A stretch of 64,000 bases of DNA from a virus: IMG/VR virus record IMGVR_UViG_3300010885_020282, positions 1 to 64,000 of that record; one strand, 5' to 3'. Under the pieces are notes generated by a model that worked only from the letters and a program-made list of their open reading frames with translations, ran no database searches and was not told where the DNA came from. The position numbers and the translations under genes are program-made. This document shows, piece by piece, positions 41,701 through 63,965 of the stretch (its first letter is position 1; every line of letters starts with the position of its first letter).

Positions 41701-44700
41701 AGTGGGTGCACCCAATGGCAGCATGATTCGTGCTACTACATTTGACCTAGACCAAACAAGATTTGATTCAGACAGCACAAACTTTGCTGACCCAACTCCC
41801 AATAGTGGTGCTGTGTATTCGTTTGACTCTTTGCCATCAAATAATCCAACTGCATCTAACCCTCTACAGTTTGTGTTTGGACAACAATTTGTTAATAACA
41901 ATGTTCAATCCAAAGATCAGTTTGGGTATGCAGTTGACCTATCAACTGGATTGTTGTTGATTGGTTCTCCAGGTACTGATTTTAACAATGACAGCCAGAC
42001 TGATTTTGGCCAAGTGATACAATATCACAATCTTGAAAATCTTCCAGCCTGGCAAGTGATACGATTGCAACAGCCATTTGTTGATGTAAACTTGTTGGAT
42101 ACTGTGTTTATCTATGACAACACCACTAGTCAGCCACTTGAATACTTTGATTATTTTGATCCTTTGCAAGGCCGAATACTTGGTGCAGTAAGACAAAATA
42201 TCAATTATATTGGAGCAGTGGATCCTGCCGCATACAATACTGGCGCTTTGAACAACTATGGCGTGCGGTGGGCAGAGGAGTATGTGGGACAAATATGGTG
42301 GGATACCAACAACGTTCGATTCATTGACCCACACCAGTCACAACAAACCACACGTGGCCCTGAACCTGATATTGTTTATGCAAGCCGTCGATGGGGACAA
42401 GTGTTCCCCGGAAGCTCAGTTGATGTTTATCAATGGATTGTCAGCTCAGTACCGCCGATTGACTATACTGGCCCCGGAACTCCCAAAGATACCACTAGTT
42501 ATACGGTGTTAACATCACTGGACTCACAGGGATTTTTAACCACTCAGTATTATTTCTGGGCCTCAGGTCTAACCACAGTAGCTACATCGTCTAACAAGAC
42601 TTTGAGTATTACTTCACTGGCAAGATATATTGAAAATCCTCGCAGTAGTGGCATTCCTTACATTGCGCCTATAACCTCTAGCACAGTAGCAATCTACAAT
42701 GGTTTATCCTATATAAATTCGCTAGACTCGGTATTGCATATCGAGTACGACAAGCAAGCCACAGATGATGCTGTGCACGTTGAATATCAATTGATTGCAC
42801 AAGACCGTCCAGAATCGTTCTTAAATGCTACGTTATACAGAAAATTATTGGACAGTTTGTCAGGCGAAGACACTGCCGGCAATGCAGTTCCTGACCCGTT
42901 CTTGACACCTACAGAACAATACGGCATACAATTCCGTCCTCGTCAGAGCATGGTTATGAATCGTTTCTTGGCGTTGAAAAACTATATTACACAAACTAAT
43001 ACAGTGTTGGCGCAGTCCCCAATAGCCGAAACACGACAATTCAATTTGCTCAACAGCTCAGAACCTGAACCAAGTTCAGCATCAGGTGCATGGAACAAAC
43101 GTGTGGCCAATCAAGAAGAACTTAGCTATCAAGATTTGTTAGCAGTTCCACTGGGTTACAAATACCTTGTGGCAAGTGACAGTACACAAAATGGTCTTTG
43201 GACCATTTACGAAGTACAAGCTAGCATACTACCTGGTGTGCGTGACCTAGGTCTTGTACGGGTACAAAATTACGATACTCGACGTTATTGGAACTATATC
43301 AATTGGTACAGCCCTACATATAACCAGTACCAAAGAATTCTACTTGAAGTACCAAATAGATCTAGCCTAGACACACTTACAGTGCCAGTGGGTAGTGCTG
43401 TGCGTGTGACTGCTAATTCAATTAACAAGTGGGAAATTTATTTGTTAACAGCAACTGGTTGGATACGAGTTGGATTACAAGATGGCACGATTGAATTGTC
43501 ATCTGTGATTTGGGACTACACCGCTGGAAGATTTGGATTTGACAGCGAAGTGTTTGATGCACAATATTATGATCAAGCACCTATAATTGAGACTCGACAA
43601 ATCATCAAAGCCATTAACGAAGAATTGTTTATTGGAGATCTGTTAATCGAACGTAATCGATTGTTGGTGTTGATGTTCAATTACATTCTCAGCGAACAAT
43701 TGGCTCCTGTCTGGTTGACTAAAACTAGTTTGATTGATGTTGACCATACCATTCGTGAATTGCTGCCATACCCAATATACCGCGCAGACAATCAAGACTT
43801 TGTGCTCAATTATATCAATGAAGTCAAGCCATATCATGTGCAAATCCGTGAGTTTAATCTTAAATATCGCGGATCAGATCAGTACTTTGGTTCATTGACT
43901 GACTTTGATTTGCCTGCGTATTATGATAATGCAAGAGACATGTTTATTAGTCCAGTGTTGGATAACACAGGTACACTCAGCACCACAAGTAGCTTGCCCA
44001 GTAGTGATCCAATTTGGTATACTTTCCCTTGGAATCAGTGGTATCAAAACTATCTACTATCAATTCAATCAGTTGTAATCTATGCTCCTGGTTCAGGCTA
44101 TACAGAACCACCGATCGTTATAGTTACAGGTGATTGCATACAACCTGCAGTTATGACTGCACAAATTAACACTGCTGGTGAGGTTGTAGGCATTACCATA
44201 GTTGATCCAGGCCAAGGCTATAGTACCACTGCTGTAATCACACTAGATAGCAGTACTGGTACTGGTGCAGAAGTATATGCAGTCATGGGCAATAACATGA
44301 TTCGCAGTATCGCAACCACCATCAAGTATGATCGTTATCAATACAGCACCACAATACTGACATGGGAACCCAATGTCAGCTACAATGCCGGACAGCAAGT
44401 TCGCTATGCTGATCGAGTATGGTCAGCAAATGCCAACAATACAACATCAGTTGAATTTGATTCTTCACAATGGACGCTGGTTCCTGCAGGTGATCTAAGC
44501 GGTGTTGATCGTACCATGGGATACTATGTACCTACTGTAAACCAGCCGGGACTAGATCTTGGACTATTGATCAGTGGAGTTGACTACCCTGGAGTACAAG
44601 TGTCTGCGCCAGGATTTGATCAGAATGCTGGATTTGATGTTGGCAATTTTGACATGACTCCGTATGACAATATTTCAATCAGTGCTGAGGGATTTGTAAC

Positions 44701-49057: not shown

Positions 49058-50056
49058 ATGACTTATTCACTAGGTGGCTTAATACAAGCAACAGACTATA
49101 ATGGTTTTGCAGCCAACACCGCAGGTGCCAATGTCAACGATATCTGGGCAACAGGTGCAACTGATAAAGGTTACGGCCAAAGTGCCTTGGCCACGGTATC
49201 AGCAGCCGGTACAGTCACAGCCACTCAGTGGGCTGGACTAGTTAACAACATTAGCAGTATGGCCAGTCACACTGGCACCAGTATCACAGCTCGTAGTGCA
49301 CCAACAGCAGGCAACACAATCAATATCCTGGCAGCTCTAAACACTGACCTAACCAATATCACAACCAACCGCGGAAACGCGGCAGCATCTGGTACTGAGT
49401 ATGGTACGTTTTCGGGTACTACTAGTCAAACTTCTGCTGTGGGATCTGGTACTGCTGCCTGGACCATTACATTCACACACACTGTGACTTTTGCTAGTGC
49501 CAATGCATTAAGATACTTCTTTAATGCTGGCGGTATTGTGCGCCTCAAATATGGCAAAAGCTCAACTGGAACCGACAATGATCCAGATTGGAACACCTTT
49601 GCCGGGCTGTGCGGGTCAATTAATTTGACAGGTCGTGTAAACGCTACCACCAACACAATTGCCGGCCAGGCCTACACCGGAACCACCCGTCTTGGTGGTG
49701 GTGGCGGTACACAAACTACTTTGGCCACAACCACAGGATGGTACAATTTAACTGGATCACCTACAACAATATTCCAGTTAAACAACGCTACAGCACCATA
49801 TTCGGGTGAATATATTCGTACCACAGCCACAGCAACATCCAGCACAGTATTGACCTTGGTCACCACCTGGGTCAGTGATGGTAGTTCAGGAGCTGGTACA
49901 TCAGCTAATATTACAGGTGGTACAGCAACCTCAAGTCCAAGCACCACAATCTCAGGCACAGCACCTACTACATTATGCACCTACTTGCCACCTAGTTCAA
50001 CATACTTGACCACTGCCGCTTGGGGCACACCTACTATTGCTGCCTCAGTAGCATAA
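49058..50056 (+). CDS. Thr/Ser/Ala/Gly-rich virion structural protein
   Basis: MTY..G.LI.ATDYN, RYFFNAGG motifs; last gene before a terminator. Confidence 0.65.
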   Translation: MTYSLGGLIQATDYNGFAANTAGANVNDIWATGATDKGYGQSALATVSAAGTVTATQWAGLVNNISSMASHTGTSITARSAPTAGNTINILAALNTDLTNITTNRGNAAASGTEYGTFSGTTSQTSAVGSGTAAWTITFTHTVTFASANALRYFFNAGGIVRLKYGKSSTGTDNDPDWNTFAGLCGSINLTGRVNATTNTIAGQAYTGTTRLGGGGGTQTTLATTTGWYNLTGSPTTIFQLNNATAPYSGEYIRTTATATSSTVLTLVTTWVSDGSSGAGTSANITGGTATSSPSTTISGTAPTTLCTYLPPSSTYLTTAAWGTPTIAASVA

Positions 50057-50076: not shown

Positions 50077-50103
50077 AAAGGGCCTGCGGGCCCTTTACCT
50101 TTT
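50077..50103 (+). terminator. Rho-independent terminator ending the structural module
   Basis: AAAGGGCC-TGCG-GGCCCTTT hairpin followed by ACCTTTT. Confidence 0.75.
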
Positions 50104-50122
50104 GTAAATATTGCTGTATAAT
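50094..50122 (+). promoter_or_regulatory. Sigma70-type promoter (with an embedded TAAATA) heading the modification island
   Basis: TTTACC (50094-50099), 17 nt, TATAAT (50117-50122); TAAATA at 50105-50110. Confidence 0.55.
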
Positions 50123-50128
50123 ATGAAC

Positions 50129-50437
50129 ATGAATACTGATGCTTTAATTATCCACGCACGGGCTAGATTTGATCATGAAACGGCACGTCGCGTTTTAAAA
50201 GAAAAATACCAAGCCCGAATGTTGTTTGCCTACAATGGCGGTATGTGGCAGGCTGGTCCTGAACTATTAACGTTACTGCAAGCTGTGCCAGTTGAAGATG
50301 ATGTAGTGTTGCTGGATCTATATGACAATCCTGTAAAAATCAATCCTGCGGAATTGCAGTATCTAGCTCTTGGACGTTGGCAAGAACAAATGAACGCCTG
50401 GCTAGTTGAGCATGATGAAATGAGTCGTAAACGATGA
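50129..50437 (+). CDS. Hypothetical protein
   Basis: In-frame ATGs at 50123 and 50129; ATGA-coupled to the next gene. Confidence 0.7.
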   Translation: MNTDALIIHARARFDHETARRVLKEKYQARMLFAYNGGMWQAGPELLTLLQAVPVEDDVVLLDLYDNPVKINPAELQYLALGRWQEQMNAWLVEHDEMSRKR

Positions 50438-51240
50438 CCACTGGCGCACTAATACTTGCCTTCAACAATGAAGAAACAGATTATGTAGCCATGGCATCAT
50501 GGAGTGCTAGAAACATACGTCGGCATCTTGGAATCCCAACCTCAATTATAACTGACTGTGTTGATGCTGCCAAGCTTGTTGATTTTGATCACGTGATATC
50601 AGCCAATTCACAAACTGGCGGTACACGCTATTTTGAAGATTATGACCGAACAGTGACCTGGCATAATGCTGGCCGCACTGATGTATACAATTTAACACCA
50701 TATGATCAAACATTGGTGCTAGATGCTGATTATGTTGTGGCCTGTAATGATTTGAAAACAGTGTTAAATGCAACACAGGATTTTATGTGCCACCGGCATG
50801 CACTTGACTTGACAACAGGAACTCTGTTTACTAACCTTAACCAATTTGGTGATTATAATTTTCCCATGTGGTGGGCCACAGTCATAATGTTCCGTAAAAG
50901 TAATACAGCACAATACATTTTTGATTCAATGCAAATGGTACGTGCTAACTGGCAGCACTATCGAGACTTGTACGGAATTAGACAAAGTAACTATCGAAAC
51001 GACTATGCACTCAGCATTGCATTGGGTGTTGTGAGCGGGCACACACTACAAGTTGATAATATTCCTTGGCCACTGTACAGCCTTGTGCCCAGTGTGGGAT
51101 TATCAAGAGTGCACGAAGACTCGTATCAGATACAGTACACAGATTCACAAAACCGACTCAAACAAATGACTTTTAGTGGTTTAGATTTTCACGCCATGGG
51201 CAAAAAACATCTGGAGGCTGTAATTGCCAGTACTAGCTGA
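50434..51240 (+). CDS. GT-A fold glycosyltransferase-like protein
   Basis: LTPYDQTLVLDADY (DxD), WATVIMFRK, RNDYALSIA, late H. Confidence 0.65.
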   Translation: MTTGALILAFNNEETDYVAMASWSARNIRRHLGIPTSIITDCVDAAKLVDFDHVISANSQTGGTRYFEDYDRTVTWHNAGRTDVYNLTPYDQTLVLDADYVVACNDLKTVLNATQDFMCHRHALDLTTGTLFTNLNQFGDYNFPMWWATVIMFRKSNTAQYIFDSMQMVRANWQHYRDLYGIRQSNYRNDYALSIALGVVSGHTLQVDNIPWPLYSLVPSVGLSRVHEDSYQIQYTDSQNRLKQMTFSGLDFHAMGKKHLEAVIASTS

Positions 51241-51988
51241 ACGTGGGTACGTAATTCCTGCTATCGATACTGAAGATGTTGATTATCTGTCCTGTGCAAT
51301 AAAACTAGCACAGTCTATACGTCAATGGCATCCTGATGCTGATATATCTGTGTTGACTGTGCGTAGGTGTAGTGATTCTGTTTTCAATCATGTGATACCT
51401 TTACCACATGGTGACCTAGGTGGCTACGCAAATGACTGGCAAGTGTTTGCTGCCAGCCCTTATAGACAAACTATCAAGCTTGAAGCAGACATGTTGATAG
51501 CCAGCCCCATTGATCACTGGTGGACCATGTTTGAACATCGGGATGTGGTTGTTAGTACAGGATGTAGAGATTTTTATGATCAACCTGCAACCACAAGACG
51601 TTATCGTAAATTTATCGATGATAACCAGTTACCAGATGTTTATAATGCCATTACCTATTGGAGATTGAGTGCAACTGCACGAGATTTTTTTAACCTAGTG
51701 CGTAGCATTTTTGAAAATTGGGATGAATACAAACAACTGGTAAAGTTTCCTGAAGACACTCCCAGCACAGATTTTGTGTATGCCATGGCAGCACAGATCA
51801 TAGGTCCAGAATTGATCACCATGCCGTTTGCTAGTTACCCACGTATAGTACACATGAAGCGACATATTATTGGAACGCAAACAGAAGATTGGACTCAAGA
51901 ACTGGTATGGGAACAAGACCCATTGCGAATACAAACTGTGGCACAATGGGGTGCATTTCATTACAACATAAAGGATTGGCTATCATGA
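51224..51988 (+). CDS. GT-A fold glycosyltransferase-like protein (paralogue of the previous gene)
   Basis: SPYRQTIKLEADM (ExD), YNAITYWR, STDFVYAMA, FHY. Confidence 0.65.
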   Translation: MPVLAERGYVIPAIDTEDVDYLSCAIKLAQSIRQWHPDADISVLTVRRCSDSVFNHVIPLPHGDLGGYANDWQVFAASPYRQTIKLEADMLIASPIDHWWTMFEHRDVVVSTGCRDFYDQPATTRRYRKFIDDNQLPDVYNAITYWRLSATARDFFNLVRSIFENWDEYKQLVKFPEDTPSTDFVYAMAAQIIGPELITMPFASYPRIVHMKRHIIGTQTEDWTQELVWEQDPLRIQTVAQWGAFHYNIKDWLS

Positions 51989-52317
51989 TGACTGAACAAG
52001 AGTTTTGGGATATTTTACATGATGCTCCGCCCCCCAACCCTGTATTCTTTAGGTTATATTATGACGAATTAGGGACTCCGGTAACTTATACCATGGAAGA
52101 TCTACCTGGTAACTATATAGAGATTGACGCAGCCACATTTGCTTTGAGTCCAGTTAATGTGCGTGTGCGCAATAATCAGTTGATAGAAATTGTTACCATG
52201 CGTTCACAAAAACTTGTACCCGGCCAAGCTGGTAACAAATGCCATCCCCGCGATGTTGCTGTGATTGTAACAACTGATACCAGCACACTATGGAAGAAAA
52301 AAGTCTATGAAAGTTGA
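51985..52317 (+). CDS. Hypothetical protein
   Basis: ATGA overlap at 51985 preferred over the ORF-track start; FRLYYDE.G motif. Confidence 0.65.
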   Translation: MMTEQEFWDILHDAPPPNPVFFRLYYDELGTPVTYTMEDLPGNYIEIDAATFALSPVNVRVRNNQLIEIVTMRSQKLVPGQAGNKCHPRDVAVIVTTDTSTLWKKKVYES

Positions 52318-53230
52318 CATTGCAGATCTAGACTGCATTTATTTGAGTTACGATGAACCAGCTAGGGAAGAGTTTTGGGTCAAGATTCGCAACATGATTC
52401 CTTGGGCACAACGTGTGGATGGTGTCAAGGGTAGTGATGCCGCACACAAAGCGGCAGCAGCCGCAAGTGACACTGAAAGATTTATTTTAATCGACGGAGA
52501 TAACTTACCTGATCCTGCGTTCTTTAACCAAACACTCAACTTTGCCACAGCAGATCACGAGCAAGCAGTTTTTCGTTGGAGAGCACGTAATCACATCAAT
52601 GGACTCATGTACGGTAATGGTGGCCTAAGTTCGTGGACACGTACATTTGTAAACTCGATGCGCACACACGAAGCTACCGATGGGCGGGACGAAACAGTGG
52701 TAGAGTTTTGTTTTGACCCACTATACTGGGCCATGCATGATTGTTACTCTACTACATATCCCAATGGATCTCCCAAACACGCCTGGCGTGCTGGTTTCCG
52801 TGAAGGTGTCAAGATGTGTCTAGACCGTGGGCGCAAGCCTAGCACCGCTGAGTTTAGACAACGTGTGCATCAGCGCAACCTAGACAATCTAACTGTGTGG
52901 CAAAATGTTGGCTTGGATGTTGACCAGGGAGCCTGGGCCATTGCTGGTGCTAGAATGGGCACGTACAAAACAATGCTGACAGACTGGGATTTTCGTGAAG
53001 TGCAATGGTTTGATGCACTAGAAGCAATCTGGGAATCAATCAAGTCAACTGACCCTGCTGAGATTATTCAACAGTACTCTGGTCCGTTGCAAACTCAATT
53101 GGATCTGCCAACAGCAATAATGATGCCTGATCAGAGTCAATTCTTTAAACATCATTATCGCAGTAATTGGCACAATCTCGGCGTTATGACAAGAGAGATC
53201 GATGTAATAAGAAAGCAAGAGGGTTGGTGA
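52307..53230 (+). CDS. Glycosyltransferase-like (GT-A) protein
   Basis: YLSYDEP, RVDGVKGSDAAH, FILIDGDN (DxD), NGLMYGNGG, AWRAGFREGVKM. Confidence 0.6.
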   Translation: MKVDIADLDCIYLSYDEPAREEFWVKIRNMIPWAQRVDGVKGSDAAHKAAAAASDTERFILIDGDNLPDPAFFNQTLNFATADHEQAVFRWRARNHINGLMYGNGGLSSWTRTFVNSMRTHEATDGRDETVVEFCFDPLYWAMHDCYSTTYPNGSPKHAWRAGFREGVKMCLDRGRKPSTAEFRQRVHQRNLDNLTVWQNVGLDVDQGAWAIAGARMGTYKTMLTDWDFREVQWFDALEAIWESIKSTDPAEIIQQYSGPLQTQLDLPTAIMMPDQSQFFKHHYRSNWHNLGVMTREIDVIRKQEGW

Positions 53231-53931
53231 TGCGTTTATTGGTCAATGGATGTAGTTTTAGTCGTGGTCCCATTGCCTGGCCCAATCACGTGGCTCGTTT
53301 GTTAAATGCAGATCTTGTTAACCTAGCACAGTCGGGTGCAGGCAACAACTACATTGCCCAAACAACACAAGCAGAGCTTGCACGATGCGACTATGATCTT
53401 GTGCTGGTTATGTGGAGCGGGCTAGAACGCATTGATATACAAGTGGAGCGCATAGAAGATTTTGATCAAACACTGTGCACTAGCTTGTATCAAAGCAGTC
53501 AAAACGACTGGGCTGAAAAAATAGTAGAACCTGTAAACGATCAAGACTGTGTACAAAAAGACTGGGTGTTTGGTGTAGGATATTTGAATGGTGATCGATT
53601 CCTAACAAGCAATGGGCTGTTTACTAAACAATACATGTACCAGTCATTGAGCCAGCACACACAACGTAGCATGTATCACATGATCAGTTTGCAGAGTTAT
53701 TGCAAATCTCGTGGCATACCGTTTGTGGCAACATTCTATCAAAACTATGTGACTGAGTTTGATCATTTCCCTACACTAAAAGCTCAGTTAGACTGGAACA
53801 ATATCTATAATCAAGTCAACTTGTTTGATCTTGTCAAGCAAACAAAGGACTTTGATACAGATGGGCTACACCCTGGTGCAACGGCATATGAACGCTGGGC
53901 TGTTAATTTATATAATTTTATTTCAAAATGA
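53230..53931 (+). CDS. SGNH/GDSL hydrolase-like protein
   Basis: VNGCSFS (block I), NLAQSGAGN (block II), DGLHPG (block V); TGATG-coupled start at 53230. Confidence 0.7.
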   Translation: MRLLVNGCSFSRGPIAWPNHVARLLNADLVNLAQSGAGNNYIAQTTQAELARCDYDLVLVMWSGLERIDIQVERIEDFDQTLCTSLYQSSQNDWAEKIVEPVNDQDCVQKDWVFGVGYLNGDRFLTSNGLFTKQYMYQSLSQHTQRSMYHMISLQSYCKSRGIPFVATFYQNYVTEFDHFPTLKAQLDWNNIYNQVNLFDLVKQTKDFDTDGLHPGATAYERWAVNLYNFISK

Positions 53932-54905
53932 TCACACTACCAAACATAGATGGAAAAATTTGGAATCTTGAACAAAAGATTGTTGACATAATAGATTGTG
54001 TAATAAATCAACAGTCCTTGACTATTAGTCTAAACAACGAAGGGCCCGACGCTGCCGAGCTGGGCTTGTATTCTTTGTTAGACGCTATTTGTAGACAATA
54101 CAATTACCCTAAACAAAATATACATATCTTAACTTGTAATCAGTTAGAATATCATCATGAGTATTGTATAGAAAAACAATCACCTCTGTATGTGTCTGAA
54201 TCACAGCAATTTGCACTAAAGCACCAATTCCCAACAAAAACATTCGGTGACAGCTTCAAACACTTTGGTTTGTTTATAGGTCGCAGTAATTGGTTACGAT
54301 TATGGCTTGCTAGTTATATGTACAATTGTCACCGAAATCAAACAAAGATGACTTTTCACTACGATCCTAAACTGGACTTTCATCAGGATCACCTGGGCTT
54401 AGACGATCTAATCAGATTTAAATCAGACTTAATACAGGATCTAAATCCAATGCAATTGATTTCTGATTCCCCAATAGTAGATCAAACTGTAGAAACATAC
54501 CCTATACTAACACCGGCACATTTTAATATAAGCAAAGTATACCATTCTTTCTTTTTAGAAATAGTATGCGAAACGTACAGCCGTGGCGCTAGTTTTTACC
54601 CCACTGAAAAAATCTGGCGCCCAATCATCAACCGCACCCCTTTTATTGTTCAGGGTCCTCAGAATTATACCAACAACCTGCATCGTTTAGGGTTTAAAAC
54701 TTTTAGTAACTGGTTTGATGAAAGTCATGGCCAAGATGATTACAGTTATCAACCCGTGGGTATTTGTACTACATTGAATCAATTGGCTGCATATTCAACA
54801 GAAGAGTTAGAGGGCATATATATTGACATGACTGATACATTAGAACACAACTATCAAGTCTTGATGGAATTAACTGACAAAAAGATAGTAGAGATTTTTA
54901 AATGA
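53928..54905 (+). CDS. Glycosyltransferase-like protein (GT10/GT-B-type TEK motif)
   Basis: FLEIVCET...FYPTEKIWRPI...PFIVQG...LGFKTF..FDES. Confidence 0.55.
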   Translation: MITLPNIDGKIWNLEQKIVDIIDCVINQQSLTISLNNEGPDAAELGLYSLLDAICRQYNYPKQNIHILTCNQLEYHHEYCIEKQSPLYVSESQQFALKHQFPTKTFGDSFKHFGLFIGRSNWLRLWLASYMYNCHRNQTKMTFHYDPKLDFHQDHLGLDDLIRFKSDLIQDLNPMQLISDSPIVDQTVETYPILTPAHFNISKVYHSFFLEIVCETYSRGASFYPTEKIWRPIINRTPFIVQGPQNYTNNLHRLGFKTFSNWFDESHGQDDYSYQPVGICTTLNQLAAYSTEELEGIYIDMTDTLEHNYQVLMELTDKKIVEIFK

Positions 54906-56296
54906 GCCAGGACAATGAAACACTAACCAACAAAAGCAACTTCATGGGATCTGCCGAGCAAATGAAAGACTCCCTGGGTCCTGCTCTTTGCCTGGCTAAA
55001 TGGAAGCAAGTGAGTCTACACTTGCCTACTGGGCTCAACAACTCGTGTTACCATCCTCCCTTGCAATCAATTCCAGTGGAGGGATTGGCAGATAACCCTG
55101 GACAGTTGCACAACACTCCGCACAAAAAAGCACAACGTGTGTTAATGCTAAAGAATGAACGCCCTGCAGAATGCCAGTACTGTTGGAACATGGAAGACCT
55201 AGGCGAAATGAGTGACCGGCATTATCGTTCAGGTGAACCCTGGGCCGCAGTTGACCTAGAAAAAATTCGTAACAGCACAGGACTCGAAGATGACATTATC
55301 CCCAGTTACGTGGAAGTTAATTTTAATCATGCTTGTAATCTTAAATGTAGTTATTGCTCACCTCAGTTTAGTTCAAGTTGGCAAGACGAAGTGGAAAGAC
55401 ACGGAGCATACCCCACCCATCGCCCTCATAATGCTCCTGAGCACTTTAGTGGTAATCGCAGACCTATTCCTGCTAGGGCCGATAACCCTTATGTAGATGC
55501 TTTCTGGGCTTGGTGGCCCACCTTGTACCCACAACTAAAACATTTTCGCATGACCGGCGGCGAACCACTAATGGATCGAAACACCTATCGAGTGTTTGAC
55601 TATGTGTTGGCCTTGCCCAAACCCGATTTGCATTTAAATGTAACCAGTAACTTTAGCGTAGAAGATGTGTTGTTTGAAAAGTACCTGGGCTATGTCAAAC
55701 AGCTATGTGACACCAATATTGAACACTTCATGCAGTATGTGAGCCTTGACACAGGTAATTTTTTACAAGCCGAATACATACGGCATGGTCTCAACGGCGC
55801 AAGATTAATTGACAATGTGTTGCGTTACCTAGATGAAGTTCCTGCAAGAAACAGTTTGACATTTATTGTTACTATGAACAATCTCTCTGTAACAGGATTC
55901 CAAAGTTTGATGGAATGGATACTTGTGCTAAGAACTACATTTAGCGACACCTATCAACGTGTGTGGTTTGATACCCCTGTATTACGTGCACCCTCTTGGC
56001 AAAGCCTGCAAATCTTGCCTGAAAGTTATGCTGTCATGTTAGAACGCACAGCTGATTGGATGCAAGAGCGTGTTACTGCAGGATTGCACGGCTTTAAAGA
56101 TTATGAAGTGCAACGTTTGCGGAGAGACATCGCCTGGATGCGAGAAGGACAAAAGCTTGATAATATTCAAAACAAAGCAGACTTTTATCGTTTCTTTAGC
56201 GAGCACGATCGTAGACGAGATACAGACTTCTTGCAAACTTTTCCTGAAATGAAGTCCTGGTGGACAGAATGTGAAGCGCATGCTCGGCAATCGTAA
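54902..56296 (+). CDS. Radical SAM protein with N-terminal Twitch-like domain
   Basis: CLAKW...SCYHP...ECQYCW, then CNLKCSYC and TGGEP. Confidence 0.9.
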   Translation: MSQDNETLTNKSNFMGSAEQMKDSLGPALCLAKWKQVSLHLPTGLNNSCYHPPLQSIPVEGLADNPGQLHNTPHKKAQRVLMLKNERPAECQYCWNMEDLGEMSDRHYRSGEPWAAVDLEKIRNSTGLEDDIIPSYVEVNFNHACNLKCSYCSPQFSSSWQDEVERHGAYPTHRPHNAPEHFSGNRRPIPARADNPYVDAFWAWWPTLYPQLKHFRMTGGEPLMDRNTYRVFDYVLALPKPDLHLNVTSNFSVEDVLFEKYLGYVKQLCDTNIEHFMQYVSLDTGNFLQAEYIRHGLNGARLIDNVLRYLDEVPARNSLTFIVTMNNLSVTGFQSLMEWILVLRTTFSDTYQRVWFDTPVLRAPSWQSLQILPESYAVMLERTADWMQERVTAGLHGFKDYEVQRLRRDIAWMREGQKLDNIQNKADFYRFFSEHDRRRDTDFLQTFPEMKSWWTECEAHARQS

Positions 56297-57422
56297 ACTA
56301 ATACTAGACAGATTTTGTGAAGTATACTTGTTATTAAAACCCTGGGTAGATGAAATATTTTGGGATTTCTCCACAGTAGATCCTGAACCCGGTGCAATAT
56401 ACATGATTGGACGACAGCAACTGATCAACAATCGTGAAAAATTTCGGGACATGGCCGCTAGCGGATTATACACAATGGTGTTTAACAACAGTGCCGAAGG
56501 ATCGTGGACATTAGAAAGTCAAATAAAACAACTCAAACTTGAAGAACTAGCACTGGATAAAAGGATATTGTTTGTAGGCGGTGCACCAATTAACCTAGAC
56601 TTTGCGTGTTTATCACATGAGCACTTTTTGGCCAGCATACTGGACTACGATGAAAACGTTGCTGTGCAATCTCATACCGATGACATATTCTCCAAGCATG
56701 ACAAGCCATATAAGTTCTTATTTTTAAATGGTCGTGCCAGACCGCATAGGAAATATCTGTACGAACGATTCAAAAGAAATGGTACACTAGACCATGCTTT
56801 ATGGACCATGTTGGATGCCAAGCCTACTGTGGTTAGAACATTTGATTTATACGAGAACGACACAAATGTCATGGCCACACCAACACCATTGCAACGCTTG
56901 CCAGACCACTACGAAGTAGACAGATATCGTGATCCCACGTTTGGGCCAATTGTGCTGGATCAATCCAACATAAAACAAGAATTATTTAGAAATGAATGGG
57001 GTGATATTTACCTTGCACCCGAACCATATGTGGACACATATTTTAGTCTGGTTACAGAAACAGTATGTGCAGAAAGTACATACAGTTTTAGAACAGAAAA
57101 AATAGCTAAACCACTTGTCATGGGTCACCCATTTATTGTGGCATCAACGCCGGGGTTTTATCAAGACTTACACACCCTAGGATTTAAAACATTTGCCGGT
57201 ATCATTGATGAAAGTTTTGATTCAATTGACAACGCTCAACTTAGAATGGATCGAATTGTGGACATTGTAACAGATTTATGTCAGCAAGACCTTGCGAGTT
57301 TCCTTCGGGCGTGTTATAATGTATGTAAATACAATCAGCAACATCTTGTGGAAATTCAAGCAAAAGATCGAAAAGAATTTCCTGATCGTTTCTCCCAATT
57401 TATAAATCAATACATTCAATGA
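56280..57422 (+). CDS. Glycosyltransferase-like protein (TEK motif), paralogue of 53928..54905
   Basis: FLFLNGRARPHR, FSLVTET...FRTEKIAKPL..GHPFIV...LGFKTF..IIDESFD. Confidence 0.55.
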   Translation: MLGNRKLILDRFCEVYLLLKPWVDEIFWDFSTVDPEPGAIYMIGRQQLINNREKFRDMAASGLYTMVFNNSAEGSWTLESQIKQLKLEELALDKRILFVGGAPINLDFACLSHEHFLASILDYDENVAVQSHTDDIFSKHDKPYKFLFLNGRARPHRKYLYERFKRNGTLDHALWTMLDAKPTVVRTFDLYENDTNVMATPTPLQRLPDHYEVDRYRDPTFGPIVLDQSNIKQELFRNEWGDIYLAPEPYVDTYFSLVTETVCAESTYSFRTEKIAKPLVMGHPFIVASTPGFYQDLHTLGFKTFAGIIDESFDSIDNAQLRMDRIVDIVTDLCQQDLASFLRACYNVCKYNQQHLVEIQAKDRKEFPDRFSQFINQYIQ

Positions 57423-58750
57423 ATGATCTAGAATTCCGTACTACAGTATTGGACCCACTTAGCGATAGTTTTTGTGCAGCCAAATGGTACAATGCAACCA
57501 TTTGGTTGGGCAGTGGCATGACCACCAGTTGCCATCATCCCCCGGCCCATTTAGTCGACAAAGATAAAGTCGGTGCTAACCCTAGGCTGTTGCACAACAC
57601 TGATCAAAAGAAAGACGATCGCAGAAAGATGCTCACAGGCGAACGACCTGCAGGCTGCGAATACTGTTGGAAAATTGAAGACATGGGTCGCGATGCCATC
57701 AGTGACCGTGTGTATAAAAGTAAAATTTATCCTATCCACGCATTAAAGGAAGCATATGAAACACCTGTTGAACAAGATGTCAACTTACGTACCTTGGAAA
57801 TTGCTTTTGACCGTACTTGCCAGTTTGCTTGTAGCTACTGCAATCCTGCTTTTAGTAGCACATGGGTTCGAGATATACGAAACAACGGCGCTTACAAGGG
57901 CTTGGTTAGCGATGGCAGGAATCATTTTACTCATGATCACGCTGCCGCTCAACTTTACAAATTCGGAGAAAGAAATCCCTACGTGGACGCATTCTTTGCC
58001 TGGTGGGAAAGCGACCTCCATAGAACACTCCAAGAGCTTAGAATAACCGGTGGTGAGCCACTGATGTCAGGATATACCTGGAAACTGATTGATTGGTTCA
58101 AAGAAAACCAAGGCAAGTCAACCACACGACTTGCTATCAACAGCAATCTTGGTACTGATGTAGATGTTGATAGACTGCTATCCAGTATTGACGGAATGGC
58201 AATAGATCTTTACACGTCAAATGAAGCTGTGGGAGTCCAAGCCGAATACATACGTGATGGACTTGTGTGGCAAGACTGGGTTGACAATGTTGAACGTTTG
58301 TTAGCAAGCAAAAAGTTCCGTGGCATACACGTCATGTGCACAATCAATGCTTTGTGCTTGGACACCTTGGATCAACTGCTAGAGTGCATAATGGAATGGA
58401 AATCCAAACACGGTCGTGACGCTATCAGTTTTACACTCAATATTTTGCGTTTTCCTAGCTTTCAGTCCCCCTTGGTGTTGCCCAATACAACACGCATGAT
58501 TTACCGGCAAAGACTAATCACATGGTTAGAACACTACCACAATTCAATATTCTTACATGAGCATGAGCTCAATCATGTTCAACGACTAGTAGATTACCTA
58601 GACGTAGTAAAGACCCCGCACAGTGAAGCATTTGAAATGCCCAAACTCCTAAATGATTTTAAACAGTTCTATACACAGTACGATACTCGGCGTAGCAAGA
58701 ACTTTGTAAAAACATTTCCAGCATTAACTGATTGGTACAACACCTTATGA
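57419..58750 (+). CDS. Radical SAM protein with N-terminal Twitch-like domain
   Basis: CAAKW...SCHHP...GCEYCW, then CQFACSYC and TGGEP. Confidence 0.9.
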   Translation: MNDLEFRTTVLDPLSDSFCAAKWYNATIWLGSGMTTSCHHPPAHLVDKDKVGANPRLLHNTDQKKDDRRKMLTGERPAGCEYCWKIEDMGRDAISDRVYKSKIYPIHALKEAYETPVEQDVNLRTLEIAFDRTCQFACSYCNPAFSSTWVRDIRNNGAYKGLVSDGRNHFTHDHAAAQLYKFGERNPYVDAFFAWWESDLHRTLQELRITGGEPLMSGYTWKLIDWFKENQGKSTTRLAINSNLGTDVDVDRLLSSIDGMAIDLYTSNEAVGVQAEYIRDGLVWQDWVDNVERLLASKKFRGIHVMCTINALCLDTLDQLLECIMEWKSKHGRDAISFTLNILRFPSFQSPLVLPNTTRMIYRQRLITWLEHYHNSIFLHEHELNHVQRLVDYLDVVKTPHSEAFEMPKLLNDFKQFYTQYDTRRSKNFVKTFPALTDWYNTL

Positions 58751-60444
58751 ACTTTGATCAAGCACTAGACGCATGCCGTCGAGAATTTGATATTGTTGCT
58801 GAAATTGATTTAGCAAAATGGGGCACAGATTATGCTCAAGGCCAACAATGGTTGGAAACGATTTTGCGAGAGATTCGTCGCGATGTATTTGCGCCCCAAG
58901 AACTCATTGTGTTATTACATCGACAAGATTTTTTCACTCCTGATAGTCGAGTTGGGCTGATCTTAAAGAACCTACAAGTACTGCTCAACGAAGTAGATAT
59001 CAGCAATTATTTTGTACGTGTGCTCTCCAGCGATCCCAACATTGATCAAACTCGCTTGTGGTTGTTGTCAAACAGTACCGACACTGTGCCTCTGACCATT
59101 GATGCAGTTGATGACCAGTTTGATGCAGTAGAGTTAACACACCACCCGGCTAGCTTAAAAGAAACGTATCAATACGGCAGTAGCAATCCTTTAAAAATTA
59201 ATATACAAGACTTGTCCTTGCGCGAGCGTGAATTACTCACAGAATCAAAAACGTTTTGCATGTATCCTTGGATTCATTTACACGCATTTCCCACGGGTGA
59301 TGCACATCCTTGTTGCTACAGCGAAATGTCTCATCAGATTGGACACACAAAAGAAAATACCCTAGCCGAAATATGGAATGATCAGCCCATGCGTGATTTG
59401 CGCATACGCATGCTCAACAACGAGACTAGTGGTGCGTGTAAGAAATGTTATGAACAAGAAGCCAACGGGTTTTTTAGTGGACGACAAAGCGCCAACAAAC
59501 ATCACGGGCATCATGTTCAACGTGCGTTGGCTACGCATGATAACGGGCACCTAGATCAATTTGAAATGACATACTGGGATATTCGTTTCAGTAATCTTTG
59601 TAATTTAAGTTGCCGCAGTTGCGGGCATATTTTTAGTTCAAGTTGGTACAAAGATCAAAGCCAATTGGCCGGGCCCGAATGGGCGCAACGACATCAAGTA
59701 TTAAACTTTGCCGGGCGTACTCAAACTGATATCTGGGAACAACTGGTGCCGCACCTGGATTACGTGGAACAAATTTACTTTGCTGGTGGTGAGCCCTTGA
59801 TGATGGACGAGCATTATCGTATTCTTGAAGAGCTTGAACGTCGTGGCCGCTTTGATGTTAGATTAATCTACAACACCAACTTCACACAAGTACGACTCAA
59901 AGATCGCATGGTATTTGATTATTGGAAACGATTCGACAGCGTTAGTGTGGGCGCCAGTTTAGATGACATGGGGCCACGTGGCGAATACGTTCGAAAAGGC
60001 ACACGCTGGGCCACAGTTGAAGCCAATCGTGAAAGAATGATGCAGGAATGTCCACGTGTGGACTTTTATATTAGTCCCACACTTAGCATTTTAAACGCTT
60101 GGAGCCTGCCAGACTTTCATCGCAATTGGGTTGAACAAGGCTTTATCCGTGCACAAGATTTAAATGTCAACATACTGCAAGACCCTGTGCACTATAGAAT
60201 TGATATTGCACCCAGTGAATACAAAGCACGTTTAACTGAAAAGTATCAACAACACATTGAATGGCTACGCCCACAAGACGCTCTGGCCCGTGCCACGGTG
60301 GGGTTTGAAAGTGCTGTTACACTCATGAATAGCACAGACAATACTCATTTTATCGATACGTTTTGGCGCAAAACACACGAGCTTGACAGTATTAGAAACG
60401 AATCTTGGTCCGACATCATACCCGAATTAAAGGCACTATTATGA
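58747..60444 (+). CDS. Radical SAM protein with Twitch-like domain and an extra N-terminal domain
   Basis: FCMYPW...PCC...ACKKCY, then CNLSCRSC and AGGEP; ATGA start at 58747. Confidence 0.9.
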   Translation: MNFDQALDACRREFDIVAEIDLAKWGTDYAQGQQWLETILREIRRDVFAPQELIVLLHRQDFFTPDSRVGLILKNLQVLLNEVDISNYFVRVLSSDPNIDQTRLWLLSNSTDTVPLTIDAVDDQFDAVELTHHPASLKETYQYGSSNPLKINIQDLSLRERELLTESKTFCMYPWIHLHAFPTGDAHPCCYSEMSHQIGHTKENTLAEIWNDQPMRDLRIRMLNNETSGACKKCYEQEANGFFSGRQSANKHHGHHVQRALATHDNGHLDQFEMTYWDIRFSNLCNLSCRSCGHIFSSSWYKDQSQLAGPEWAQRHQVLNFAGRTQTDIWEQLVPHLDYVEQIYFAGGEPLMMDEHYRILEELERRGRFDVRLIYNTNFTQVRLKDRMVFDYWKRFDSVSVGASLDDMGPRGEYVRKGTRWATVEANRERMMQECPRVDFYISPTLSILNAWSLPDFHRNWVEQGFIRAQDLNVNILQDPVHYRIDIAPSEYKARLTEKYQQHIEWLRPQDALARATVGFESAVTLMNSTDNTHFIDTFWRKTHELDSIRNESWSDIIPELKALL

Positions 60445-61655
60445 ATATTCCACACGATCAATTCTGCGTACTGCCCTGGGTTAGTCTAGAAGCCTCGCCT
60501 ATTGGTACTGTGCGTCCGTGTTGTCTAGCCGACGATGAGATTGTAGATGACACAGGCAATAAATTTGTATTAGCCACAGCTGACTTCTCTAACATACAAA
60601 ACAGCAGTCACATGCGCCAATTGCGTGAACAGTTTTTGCGTGGAGAAAAACCACAGACTTGCCGCAAGTGTTGGAATGAAGAAAGTGCAGGGCGCACTAG
60701 CAAACGTATGCACACCCTAGATCGACTCAAGCACATGTTGCCAGATCAAGACTGGACTGTAGATGCCAAGCCACTAATGTTTTTGGATTTGAAACTGGGC
60801 AACATCTGCAACTTGAAATGTCGCATTTGTGGATCTTGGTCCAGCTCACAATTTGCCGCAGAGGAAATCAGTTTTACTCGCCCCGAGCAACGCAAGCAAA
60901 GTCATGCATATCAAATGTTAAGAGCCGGTGCCTGGCCACAAGACAACACACAGTTTTGGAATCAAATTGATGAATCATTAAATGACATACGCTATATTGA
61001 ATTCACTGGTGGTGAGCCATTCATGATTCGTGAACACTTTGTGATGTTACAAGGCATTGTAGACCGTGGCATTGCAGGCAACGTAGAAATACATTACAAC
61101 ACAAATGGTACAATTTATCCTGAAGAAGCTGAAGAGATCTGGAAGCATTTCAAAACAGTAGAAATTGCATTCAGTATTGACGACCTAGGAGATCGATTTG
61201 AATACCAACGTACTAATGCCAAATGGCCCGAAGTGCAAGAAAACATCGAAAAGTTTTTTAAACTAAAAAGATACCTACCAAGTATTATACAATTACAAGT
61301 GTGTACGACTGTGAATATTTTCAACGTTCGATACATAGATCAAGTAGCGCAATGGTTAGATGGCAGACCTTTTAATTTTGTATACTGGAACATGATGCAT
61401 GATGCTTGGTATTTCAGTATTGCCAACTTACCCGGTCCAGCCAAACAAGCAATCCAAGAGCATTTGAATTCAGCTGACATACCCCAAAAATATCAAGCAG
61501 AATTTCAACGCATTATAGAATTCATGACTCGAGGCCCAGACAGCAGTGGAGAAGTCTTACTGAGAGAAATTGCCAATCTAGACCGGCGCCGAGAACAAAA
61601 TCTCAACATAGCCATGCCTGAACTGGCTAAAATGTTGAACTACGTTGGACCATGA
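60441..61655 (+). CDS. Radical SAM protein with N-terminal Twitch-like domain
   Basis: FCVLPW...PCC...TCRKCW, then CNLKCRIC and TGGEP; ATGA start at 60441. Confidence 0.9.
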   Translation: MNIPHDQFCVLPWVSLEASPIGTVRPCCLADDEIVDDTGNKFVLATADFSNIQNSSHMRQLREQFLRGEKPQTCRKCWNEESAGRTSKRMHTLDRLKHMLPDQDWTVDAKPLMFLDLKLGNICNLKCRICGSWSSSQFAAEEISFTRPEQRKQSHAYQMLRAGAWPQDNTQFWNQIDESLNDIRYIEFTGGEPFMIREHFVMLQGIVDRGIAGNVEIHYNTNGTIYPEEAEEIWKHFKTVEIAFSIDDLGDRFEYQRTNAKWPEVQENIEKFFKLKRYLPSIIQLQVCTTVNIFNVRYIDQVAQWLDGRPFNFVYWNMMHDAWYFSIANLPGPAKQAIQEHLNSADIPQKYQAEFQRIIEFMTRGPDSSGEVLLREIANLDRRREQNLNIAMPELAKMLNYVGP

Positions 61656-62941
61656 CCGCTCCCAAAACACTATGCCTAGCGCCTTGGACGCATACATATC
61701 TATCGCCTCAAACCGAGCGCAGGATGTGTTGTGCATCTAGAGAGCCTGCACAAAGTTTTCGACAATACATAGATACTAGTGCAGGTACCGGCGAATATCA
61801 ACCAGTTAGTCTAGAACAGCACTGGAATAGTGATCACATGCGTGATGTACGACAGCGCATGATAGCTGGCGAAACTCTGCCAGAATGTGATGTATGCAAT
61901 AGCAAACTGTTGAATACTGCTGTGTACAGAGACTATTTCAACCAGTTGTTTGCACACAAACTAGACGAAGTTTATACATCTACAGATGCAACAGGTGCAA
62001 CTACAATGAAACCTGTGAGTTGGGACTATCGGTTTAGCAATCTCTGCAACTTCAAGTGTCGCATGTGCGGTGACATGTTGTCAAGCTCTTGGGAAACTGA
62101 ACAACGACAGCATGGCATGGTAGACCTTGACAATCCCAAAAACAACTGGATGATTCCTGAAGTTCGCAAAACTATTAGCCAATTTCAAGACACTCAGATT
62201 GAACAAGAATTCTCAGATGCTGTGGAACAACATCGTGTTGAGGAAGTGTACTGGGTAGGTGGTGAGCCATTGATGTACGAACAACATTGGCGTTACATGA
62301 GACGCATAGTTGAACTAGGTGACGGGCCTCGGGTGTATGCAAGATACAATACCAATCTTTCTAGAGTTGATTATCGTGGCGTTAATCTATATCGAGATAT
62401 TCTGGCTAATGTTCGCGATTGGCAGATTTGTGCCAGTCTTGACGGAACAGGGGTAATAGGAGAATACATCAGAACCGGACTTGACTATGACGAATTTTGT
62501 AGTAACTTTGAACAAGGTCTAACCTATCAACGTAGCCGGAGACAAATGCGCCTAGACTTTACACTCACACTGCCAGGCATGTTTGAAGTTGGCGCCATAC
62601 AGCAACTGGCAACTCGGTATGATGTAGACATTTTGGCCAAAGTAGTGTTCTCTTTTAGTCCAGACATTGTCATGAGTCCATTAGCGTTACCACGTGAGTT
62701 ATTGGAGCCCTGGATTGACGAGCTGGTGTCTTGTAGCACTGGCGCTGTTCAAGATGTGCTAACACAACTAAAACTACGACCCACATTTGCAGAACAATGG
62801 CCAGATCAATATCAAGCAGGGCTTGCAAAAGGCAAAGCTCGTGTGTTAAAATTAGAAAGCATACGCACAGCCTCTACTTCAATGGCTGAAATATTGAGCC
62901 AAAGGCCGGCAATAAAGAAATGGTGGGATCAAATTGATTGA
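61652..62941 (+). CDS. Radical SAM protein with N-terminal Twitch-like domain
   Basis: LCLAPW...MCC...ECDVC, then CNFKCRMC and VGGEP. Confidence 0.9.
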   Translation: MTAPKTLCLAPWTHTYLSPQTERRMCCASREPAQSFRQYIDTSAGTGEYQPVSLEQHWNSDHMRDVRQRMIAGETLPECDVCNSKLLNTAVYRDYFNQLFAHKLDEVYTSTDATGATTMKPVSWDYRFSNLCNFKCRMCGDMLSSSWETEQRQHGMVDLDNPKNNWMIPEVRKTISQFQDTQIEQEFSDAVEQHRVEEVYWVGGEPLMYEQHWRYMRRIVELGDGPRVYARYNTNLSRVDYRGVNLYRDILANVRDWQICASLDGTGVIGEYIRTGLDYDEFCSNFEQGLTYQRSRRQMRLDFTLTLPGMFEVGAIQQLATRYDVDILAKVVFSFSPDIVMSPLALPRELLEPWIDELVSCSTGAVQDVLTQLKLRPTFAEQWPDQYQAGLAKGKARVLKLESIRTASTSMAEILSQRPAIKKWWDQID

Positions 62942-63965
62942 AATAGATTTACGCAGTGAACAAGGTCACCTGCACACAGTGTACGTCAACGTACATGACA
63001 ACAGTCTAAGTCAAAAGTGGTTGGCTGCATTGAATCACCTAATCGAGCACAACTACCATCTAGAAAAAAATTACTGCTGGTTTGGCTTTCCTGGTAATTC
63101 TAGAAATCCCGAATACTTGTGTACGCAGATAAACCGCAGTATCAAGGCAATCAATGCCGCAGGACTAGGTTATACTATCAATGATTGGTTTAGTCCTGCC
63201 AATACAATAGCTTCAGATGATGGAATTGATCATGCACACATGAATGACTTGCACAGATACTTTGAAGACCTGCAAGGAGTAAGTGGTGCACTGAGTCCCT
63301 ATTACCAGGCAGCTGATGCTGAAACACGCTGGCACATACGACAGTTGAACTTGTTGTGTCATGAGCATGAAAGTTTGATACTAAGCATACGCAAAGCAAA
63401 CACAGCCCCAGATTGGCAACGACCCAGCCAACTCATGTGTTGGTTAAATGCTCCACGGTTTGCACTAGATGCTGAGGATTATGAATTGTTTGGTGTAGAC
63501 ACAATCAGTCGTGATCTTGGAGGGGTTTATCTGGGTGTAAACAAAGCTGTGGGTAAACACCATTGGGAAGTGTTCAACGATGAAGGCCGGGACAGTCGCA
63601 TTGCAGAACTAACTACCAGCACACTTAAATCGCAAACAGAAGCAGCCGGGGATTTTGATATAGAGTGGGGACAAAGTCCTGCAGGGCACGACTGGCAAGA
63701 ATCTAAACTGACAGACTTTCGCACTTGGCTAACAGCAAACGGGTTTGATCCCAAGGACCCAAGGCTAACAATTGGGCACCCGCAAGTGGCACAAGTTGAT
63801 TTGGATCGTAGTTTTGGTACAAACAATCATCGCGACATATGGAACTGCTTAAATACACACCTAGACGTGGCAGCTATACGCACAGAAACTGCCAGTGCTG
63901 AATACAATTATCGCTGGAGCGATGCAGATTTTGTTCAGCGTCAGATTGACATCATCAAAGGATAA
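62934..63965 (+). CDS. Hypothetical protein in the modification island
   Basis: 343-aa ORF overlapping the previous stop; NDLHRYFE and NLLCHEHE motifs; start codon uncertain (TTG). Confidence 0.7.
   Translation: MIEIDLRSEQGHLHTVYVNVHDNSLSQKWLAALNHLIEHNYHLEKNYCWFGFPGNSRNPEYLCTQINRSIKAINAAGLGYTINDWFSPANTIASDDGIDHAHMNDLHRYFEDLQGVSGALSPYYQAADAETRWHIRQLNLLCHEHESLILSIRKANTAPDWQRPSQLMCWLNAPRFALDAEDYELFGVDTISRDLGGVYLGVNKAVGKHHWEVFNDEGRDSRIAELTTSTLKSQTEAAGDFDIEWGQSPAGHDWQESKLTDFRTWLTANGFDPKDPRLTIGHPQVAQVDLDRSFGTNNHRDIWNCLNTHLDVAAIRTETASAEYNYRWSDADFVQRQIDIIKG

Follow-up and report, generated by a model that had tools for sequence, protein, structure and literature searches.

Five radical SAM paralogues with an N-terminal Twitch domain form a conserved array beside the tail genes of a freshwater jumbo-phage lineage

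In this study, we analysed the first 64,000 nucleotides (hereafter the window) of the 74,675-bp viral contig IMGVR_UViG_3300010885_020282 from IMG/VR, and we show that five radical SAM genes on its + strand, here named R1 to R5, are ancient, non-redundant paralogues that constitute the conserved core of a larger expansion in a lineage of freshwater jumbo myoviruses of ~350 kb. All five proteins are full-length members of the NCBIfam family NF033640 ("N_Twi_rSAM, twitch domain-containing radical SAM protein"), in which a Twitch-type auxiliary-cluster domain is placed before the radical SAM core. An earlier note on this DNA, made from the letters alone, had proposed a permuted radical SAM family; the layout was read correctly, but it is already catalogued, since it is the defining trait of this curated family. 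What is novel is the context, that is, an expansion to 6-17 copies within a putative phage sugar-decoration operon adjoining tail genes, and our literature search found no paper describing an NF033640 expansion in such an operon. The gene context favours glycan chemistry.

Results

The five radical SAM genes

The five genes, which belong to two subtypes, are as follows:

54902..56296, + strand: R1, subtype A, 464 aa, 291.7 bits against NF033640
57419..58750, + strand: R2, subtype A, 443 aa, 287.6 bits, 34% identical to R1
58732..60444, + strand: R3, subtype B, 570 aa (565 aa from 58747), 400.1 bits over residues 172-569
60441..61655, + strand: R4, subtype B, 404 aa from its ATG, 338.2 bits
61652..62941, + strand: R5, subtype B, 429 aa, 280.2 bits, with Pfam SPASM at residues 8-83

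The family scores (280-400 bits over model positions ~1-398, with a curated cutoff of 170 bits) were reproduced by a six-frame search, and R1-R5 share with NF033640 the domain order (Twitch, then core), the invariant Cys residues and an end-to-end match. Each protein carries CxxxCxxC and GGEP preceded by a four-Cys module with the spacing C-x17/18-C-x41-52-C-x2-C, and all five open reading frames (ORFs) of the earlier note were recovered with their motifs, a match far beyond chance. In R1 numbering the shared positions are C30, C49, C91 and C94 of the module (~54989-55183), C145/C149/C152 of the core motif (~55334-55357) and G219-G220-E221-P222. The paralogues are 19-34% identical pairwise. 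The start of R3 is likely the ATG at 58747. Although the Cys module precedes the core in all five proteins, it does not lie at the very N-terminus in R3, where it begins at C176 after an extension of ~170 aa (window 58732-59240) that had no family match; this long form accounts for 20 of the 81 R3 matches over related loci, and the remainder are without the extension.

The Cys module is a Twitch-type domain

Pfam, profile comparison, PDB matches and an AlphaFold (AF2) model together identify the N-terminal Cys module as a Twitch-type auxiliary-cluster domain. The earlier note had suggested checking the domain order with PF04055 (Radical_SAM) and PF13186 (SPASM), the latter a model that spans the region common to SPASM and Twitch. 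Above the gathering score, SPASM lies upstream of Radical_SAM in R3 (SPASM at residues 176-240, E 4e-12), R4 (residues 21-90 and 131-287, respectively, in the 416-aa TTG-start form) and R5, but it was not detected by Pfam in R1 or R2. When the N-terminal profiles of R1/R2 and of R3/R4/R5 were compared with hhalign, they were nevertheless homologous (96.6% probability, E 5.7e-10), with all four Cys columns aligned. Against the PDB, the sole matches of the subtype-B profile, weak ones, were to residues 169-242 of BtrN, and the Cys residues aligned with C169, C187, C232 and C235 of that enzyme. The subtype-A profile returned CDGSH matches only (E ~0.3), which were judged spurious.

The model of R1, built from a 136-sequence alignment, has a pLDDT of 95.6 and a pTM of 0.93, with block-mean pLDDT of at least 94 over residues 11-180, and its N-terminal module models as a Twitch domain. 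In the published SPASM/Twitch fold, a β-hairpin leads into helix α2'; the first ligand precedes the hairpin, the next comes after β2', and the last two follow α2' (PMC6231123). The order of elements in R1 agrees with that definition: C30, strands 36-40 and 45-47, C49, helix 73-83, then C91/C94. What departs from it is the location, the definition being C-terminal and the module here preceding the core. Neither the N-terminal module nor the other conserved columns hold a second Cys cluster of the kind found in the seven-Cys SPASM motif (including CX2CX5CX3C), and therefore the domain is Twitch, with one predicted auxiliary cluster, rather than SPASM; TIGR04085 (SPASM) scored only 14 bits on R3, for a cutoff of 27. 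Four Cys residues are conserved and available in subtype A and five in subtype B, which, judged from the alignments, would suffice for one cluster. BtrN itself provides all four ligands of its auxiliary cluster (PMC6231123).

Downstream of the module, the R1 model shows alternating β/α elements over residues 136-357, as in a partial (β/α)6 barrel, with invariant radical SAM motifs. By VIA, the core matches many radical SAM structures at Z 12-14 and is nearest to Twitch/SPASM, viperin and MoaA enzymes; the best match of residues 135-417 is BlsE (Foldseek E 2e-5; VIA Z 14.1, root-mean-square deviation 3.0 over 218 residues). No characterised housekeeping enzyme clusters with R1-R5. An identity with viperin or pVip was considered and rejected, given that NF038283 reached 16.5-30.5 bits over the core only (cutoff 180) and PADLOC pVip models 19-33 bits.

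Five old paralogues within a larger expansion

About 80 related IMG/VR loci carry the array, with orthologues that are 67-85% identical. All 10 ligand and motif positions are intact in 280 of 281 distinct orthologues from these loci (R1 52/52, R2 51/51, R5 60/61). For R4, more than 7,600 homologues were found, the best 120 of which are all at least 70% identical and lie on contigs of up to 344 kb. In a maximum-likelihood tree, R1/R2 are split from R3/R4/R5 with 99% support, which bears out the two subtypes of the earlier note, and each of R1-R5 forms its own supported clade, indicating that the duplications are old and that each copy has been maintained on its own. Subtype A (R1, R2 and extra copies) is a clade of phage sequences plus two multi-copy contigs from metagenome-assembled genomes (MAGs), probably mis-binned phages, and subtype B is intermixed with bacterial members. 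NF033640 is a computational grouping, and subtype A is a divergent branch of it so far seen only in phage or phage-like contigs; this restriction is provisional because the bacterial sample was seeded with subtype-B patterns.

Four near-complete relatives (G001-G004, 320-353 kb) contain 6, 9, 13 and 17 copies above the NF033640 cutoff, scattered over the genome, and 14-21 radical SAM domains each in total. They also encode two A-type iron-sulfur (Fe-S) carriers each (PF01521; for example, G001:C1:22998-23303 and 307989-308291), in line with the heavy Fe-S investment that had been inferred from the window; flavodoxin was not found in these four genomes. Control regions of the same relatives further show genes for Fe/Mn superoxide dismutase, ClpS, ClpB and Hsp20, and the carriers together with the dismutase and chaperone genes may be phage-borne support for many Fe-S enzymes. 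Both the syntenic array of five genes and its 6-17-fold wider family expansion are traits of this phage lineage and not of NF033640, so that the expansion proposed in the earlier note holds for the lineage, although the family itself is not specific to phages.

The 142 neighbours of the dispersed copies include four cytidylyltransferases, three epimerases/dehydratases, two mannose-6-phosphate isomerases and two family 8 glycosyltransferases (GT8). Among families with at least two members in a matched control of 142 genes, there were two epimerases, and cytidylyltransferase, mannose-6-phosphate isomerase and GT8 were missing. These sugar-nucleotide genes make a glycan link suggestive, not rigorous. 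Six of the 142 neighbours of these dispersed copies (L166-L180) are ClpP-family proteases (best E 3e-65), a family that was not among the control families with at least two members.

The phage lineage and the operon

The contig, with a CheckV completeness of ~21%, codes within the window for a T4-type portal, a tape-measure-like protein, baseplate hub and wedge proteins, and a 4,717-aa ORF. Its portal is ~50% identical to those of the jumbo myoviruses PA5oct, Phosso, Atu_ph07 and XbC2. DNA nearly identical to it is found in metagenomes from freshwater, lakes and rivers, with at least 82% of the sampled words present in three runs, each from a different study. A megablast search of 50,697 phage records with the array as query gave no match.

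R1-R5 are co-directional, and most of their junctions with neighbouring genes are 4-bp start/stop overlaps, six of which bind the genes into one operon. The island lies directly downstream of baseplate and fibre genes, and PHROGs offered no specific family for any of its genes. The other features of the island within the window are the following:

49058..50056, + strand: Thr/Ser/Gly/Ala-rich fibre-like protein directly upstream, recognised from its translation
50077-50096, + strand: terminator-like hairpin with an 8-bp stem, 5 GC pairs and a T-rich tail (consensus scan only)
50094-50122, + strand: promoter-like site, 10/12 consensus match, 3' of the hairpin (consensus scan only)
50434-51240 and 51224-51988, + strand: two paralogous DxD-motif proteins, putative GT-A-like, syntenic in relatives
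52307..53230, + strand: highly conserved DxD-motif protein, the usual upstream neighbour of R1, putative GT-A-like (sub-threshold GT2 match)
53167..53931, + strand: DUF6071/SGNH(GDSL)-like protein, mobile accessory gene (Pfam DUF6071 E 1.6e-5, below the gathering score)
53928..54905, + strand: U1, accessory paralogue of U2 that shares its TEK motif (BLASTP E 8e-11 over the C-terminal motif)
56271..57422, + strand: U2, GT-B-fold glycosyltransferase-like protein with a TEK motif, between R1 and R2 (AF2 with VIA/Foldseek)
62934..63965, + strand: U3, conserved protein encoded 3' of R5 and followed by the carbamoyltransferase gene; most related loci keep it in synteny

The segment 50077-50122 is, from the consensus matches, the probable 5' boundary of the operon. 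In the related loci the array R1-U2-R2-R3-R4-R5-U3-carbamoyltransferase is syntenic, and the full order is 50434-like, 51224-like, 51889-like, 52307-like, (U1), R1, U2, R2, R3, R4, a variable slot, R5, U3 and carbamoyltransferase. The operon extends past the window edge, as the earlier note had expected of the island, with the carbamoyltransferase and, coupled to it, an S11 D-Ala-D-Ala carboxypeptidase (L006:3553-4305, + strand, 1.5 kb past the window end); no additional NF033640 copy was found, however, by a six-frame profile search of the remaining 10.7 kb. A peptidoglycan-active enzyme is located within the putative tailoring operon. An NAD-epimerase gene also lies downstream of the array, and a ThyX gene stands at the end of the contig.

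Of the partner genes, U2 has the clearest fold. Its sequence found no match in Pfam or, as a U1/U2 profile, among PDB sequences. Its AF2 model (pLDDT 88) has a GT-B fold: the 50 best matches in VIA all belong to GT-B glycosyltransferases (Z 9.3-13.5, with 250-300 aligned residues that span the whole model), including protein O-glycosyltransferases, GT10 fucosyltransferases and T4 DNA glucosyltransferases, and Foldseek is concordant (E ~1e-3). Membership of GT10 is a lead that comes from an Atlas score of 0.79 and the TEK motif only. U2 orthologues were matched 77 times over the 80 loci and appear in nearly all of the syntenic arrangements, whereas U1 is present in only about one-third. The 52307 protein shows 83% mean column identity over relatives and a sub-threshold GT2 match in Pfam (E 0.052); the 50434 and 51224 proteins had no Pfam or PDB match. 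U3 orthologues are mostly 59-70% identical, with a few nearer 40%, and U3 gave no Pfam, PDB-profile or credible Atlas match. The DUF6071-like gene at 53167 occupies differing slots among relatives.

Two further genes of the window touch on this subject. At 32708-46861 (+ strand), directly 3' of a baseplate wedge gene, a single ORF encodes the giant 4,717-aa protein, putatively part of the fibres or associated with the baseplate, which may be a target of the modification island further downstream. At 13191-14210 (- strand), adjoining an SbcC-like nuclease gene, there is a radical SAM enzyme of the conventional layout (Pfam; phrog_21308), with SPASM at the C-terminal end, which shows that the phage carries both domain orders.

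A cultured relative, Ralstonia jumbo phage RsoM2USA

The strongest context evidence comes from the cultured phage RsoM2USA, in which ORF349 is an orthologue of R1 (35% identity) and ORF202 an orthologue of R2 (52% identity, E 3e-160). The R1 locus runs from a fibre-like gene (ORF355), to which the 49058 protein is weakly similar, through 50434-like ORF353 and 51224-like ORF352 (E 8e-36 and 2e-23), the unmatched ORF351 and 52307-like ORF350 (40% identical to the 52307 protein), which is directly upstream of the R1 orthologue, to a second 52307-like gene; the block adjoins the tail sheath gene. At a second locus, the R2 orthologue stands between two DUF6071 genes (E 8e-20 and 9e-10), with a carbamoyltransferase (45% identity) two genes downstream. 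All of these array-like genes are annotated as hypothetical, and the paper on RsoM2USA does not mention radical SAM.

Bacterial members of NF033640

NF033640 is very large, with 9,440 clusters (50% identity) at E ≤ 1e-30 in a profile search of 1.84 billion representatives. Over 136 diverse members, C91, C94, the Cys residues of CxxxCxxC and GGE never vary, and conservation is at least 90% at C30, W34 and C49. The family occurs in Paenibacillus and Agaribacillus isolates, in a complete Crocinitomicaceae chromosome and in many MAGs of Bacteroidota and Bdellovibrionota. The bacterial sample was seeded with an R3/R4 alignment, the five-paralogue alignment being too divergent, and is biased towards subtype B. 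Many members are fusions of two or three whole Twitch-plus-core modules (800-1,400 aa), which hints that consecutive modules act together. In the Elusimicrobia MAG MJ-2014_bin-0981, dozens of proteins of 700-1,130 aa that combine a TPR array with N_Twi_rSAM are encoded in tandem (L098, L103-L115, L121, L122), a striking expansion for a bacterium, and related MAGs have Sel1 fusions (L093).

Some contigs assigned to bacteria resemble the phage array. The Haliscomenobacter MAG EUL_031 includes contigs of 183 and 148 kb (L087, L088) with a five-copy array at 68% identity, and two other bacterial-MAG contigs (L092 and L095) hold 4 and 8 copies. These multi-copy contigs are very likely jumbo-phage contigs binned with bacteria, that is, contamination of reference genomes, and their binning is possibly a hint of a Bacteroidota host.

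Discussion

The explanation that we favour, and hold tentatively, is that R1-R5 are five non-redundant enzymes of a phage glycosylation system that tailors glycans or glycoproteins, with virion fibre or surface proteins as the target. The partial TIM-barrel AdoMet-radical core would bind one [4Fe-4S] cluster through CxxxCxxC, and the four invariant Cys residues of the Twitch domain would fully ligate a second, auxiliary [4Fe-4S] cluster. The 5'-deoxyadenosyl radical could then take a specific hydrogen from an unactivated C-H bond of a sugar, either at the nucleotide-sugar stage or once it has been built into a glycan of virion fibre or surface proteins, for which the fibre-like 49058 protein may be considered as an acceptor. 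The Twitch cluster might accept an electron, as in BtrN-type dehydrogenation. The products would be sugars in keto, epimerised, deoxy or decarboxylated form, and the neighbouring transferases would extend, acylate and carbamoylate them. Different paralogues would presumably provide different tailoring steps or specificities.

Several observations weigh against this explanation. Our literature search found no characterised member of NF033640 and no paper on the family, leaving it with no known substrate; nothing was found there either on any enzyme with an N-terminal Twitch or SPASM domain. The alignment with BtrN is weak (E 0.4-0.8) and not significant by itself. The structural neighbours of the R1 core are tied (BlsE Z 14.1, SkfB 13.8, anSME 13.3, PFL-AE 13.2, SuiB 13.1, viperin 13.0, MoaA 12.8), and the peptide-acting SkfB, anSME and SuiB differ from the enzymes that act on sugars and nucleotides by no more than 1 Z unit. 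The GT-A fold of the three DxD-motif proteins was not confirmed when their profiles, searched against PDB sequences, gave no usable match. The sugar-nucleotide enrichment near the dispersed copies is weak, orthologous loci having been counted more than once. A Pfam tally of 106 bacterial neighbour genes revealed no dominant or consistent glycan partner (GT2, 3/106). Finally, fusions to long TPR or Sel1 arrays are frequent among the bacterial members. These repeats bind proteins, not sugars, and the fusions point equally to protein substrates.

The main rival is that the enzymes directly modify side chains or backbones of the fibre proteins or the 4,717-aa protein, with the glycosyltransferases acting separately; epimerisation, cross-linking or Cα/Cβ oxidation, as in anSME, SkfB, SuiB and EpeE, are possible chemistries. 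Most characterised SPASM/Twitch enzymes act on peptides (PMC6231123), three of them are structurally as close to R1 as BlsE is, the array adjoins structural genes, and protein-binding repeats are repeatedly fused to bacterial members, dozens of them in tandem in the Elusimicrobia MAG. Yet Pfam and NCBIfam revealed no RRE or other peptide-binding domain in R1-R5, the partners conserved in two distant phages are sugar-type enzymes, and we saw no conserved gene for a small precursor among the tightly overlapping genes of the operon, where small ORFs were not systematically searched; on balance we regard direct protein modification as unlikely. Remodelling of the host envelope (lipopolysaccharide, capsule or peptidoglycan-linked glycans), which would block superinfection or release progeny, seems to us improbable. 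The S11 carboxypeptidase gene right after the carbamoyltransferase would suit it, as would a PagP-annotated gene near copies in Vibrio phage K566 and the occasional proximity of bacterial homologues to PMT_2, GT2 and sulfotransferase genes, but the module adjoins tail and fibre genes in both lineages, and among the genes of the island we found none for a flippase, a polymerase or an undecaprenyl-phosphate transferase.

Two other readings carry less weight still. Action on free nucleotides or small metabolites in the manner of viperin and MoaA, for counter-defence or host takeover, would make the position among sugar genes incidental. Both enzymes are tied with the top structural matches, there are weak core-only matches to viperin models, and the copy number differs between close relatives as is typical of conflict genes; the viperin-model scores are, however, 17-30 bits for a cutoff of 180, the five core copies are stably syntenic rather than variable, and no PADLOC defence system fits, so that this reading is very improbable. 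Least probable of all is hypermodification of phage DNA, in which a modified base would be the substrate of the GT-B enzymes and the sugar attached to it would be tailored by the radical SAM enzymes. The best structural matches of U2 include the T4 DNA β- and α-glucosyltransferases (Z 12.8 and 11.8), phage glycosyltransferases that build multi-sugar glycans on DNA have been described (Pyle et al. 2024, as cited in PMC12619734) and ThyX is encoded at the contig end. The T4 enzymes are nonetheless tied with dozens of unrelated GT-B enzymes, the island lies within the structural region and not among replication genes, and the reading is weakened because none of the four near-complete relatives encodes a ThyA-family enzyme, which could make hydroxymethyl-pyrimidines; they have ThyX only.

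The closest characterised enzymes share some features with R1-R5 and differ in others. BtrN, the butirosin 2-deoxy-scyllo-inosamine dehydrogenase and archetypal Twitch enzyme, has the spacing C-x17-C-x44-C-x2-C, close to that found here, and the same topology of Cys, hairpin, Cys, helix and CxxC. Its Twitch domain follows the core, however, and it is a protein of 250 aa with a shortened barrel, whereas R1-R5 are of 400-460 aa with a C-terminal helical region of ~100 residues. BlsE (cytosylglucuronate decarboxylase), DesII and AprD4 act on sugars or nucleoside-sugars, which fits the gene context, but sequence identity to BlsE is 15%, the NCBIfam model rSAM_BlsE gave R4 16.5 bits for a cutoff of 400, and BlsE is tied with peptide-acting enzymes. 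The peptide-acting anSME, SkfB, SuiB and CteB have a comparable core fold (Z 11.9-13.8) and an auxiliary-cluster domain; they differ in carrying a C-terminal SPASM/Twitch domain and usually an N-terminal RRE, whereas R1-R5 have the reversed order and one auxiliary-cluster motif.

Accumulation of radical SAM genes in large phages is seen elsewhere. Campylobacter phages CP220 and CPt10 have 11-12 such genes (PMC2853527), and the Aeromonas giant phage 332-Vera has 8 inside a baseplate/fibre structural cluster, with function unknown (PMC12390700). The present lineage has more, up to 17 of one family and 14-21 radical SAM domains overall, and the CP220 genes are not NF033640 members (best 31 bits, core only). 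As a model for the proposed target, mycobacteriophages decorate virion proteins by means of glycosyltransferases encoded beside structural genes (Freeman et al. 2023, as cited in PMC12619734); that system, as described there, has about two glycosyltransferases but lacks radical SAM, carbamoyltransferase and SGNH enzymes, and virion glycosylation of the present phage is putative. The citing 'moraphage' paper (PMC12619734) concerns a different lineage and does not mention radical SAM genes.

The phage array provides the clearest functional context so far for a very large family for which we found no assigned reaction. The finding is worth pursuing because the family is huge, is without assigned chemistry and can be tested in a cultured phage, its recurrence as ORF349 and ORF202 of RsoM2USA making the function directly testable. 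A broader proposal, which we consider doubtful, is that this widespread lineage has made the radical SAM class into a diversifying toolkit, with five fixed paralogues, up to a dozen variable ones and phage Fe-S carriers, for radical chemistry at C-H bonds of the glycans that its virion fibres carry. If true, this would be a new kind of enzymatic hyper-decoration of virions, radical sugar tailoring on a glycoprotein not being known from any virus, and the reversed-order Twitch enzymes would represent a class with new reactions. Resolving the function would explain why radical SAM genes accumulate in some large phages, a question raised in 2010 and once more in 2025, and would show whether phages bring their own Fe-S supply for these enzymes.

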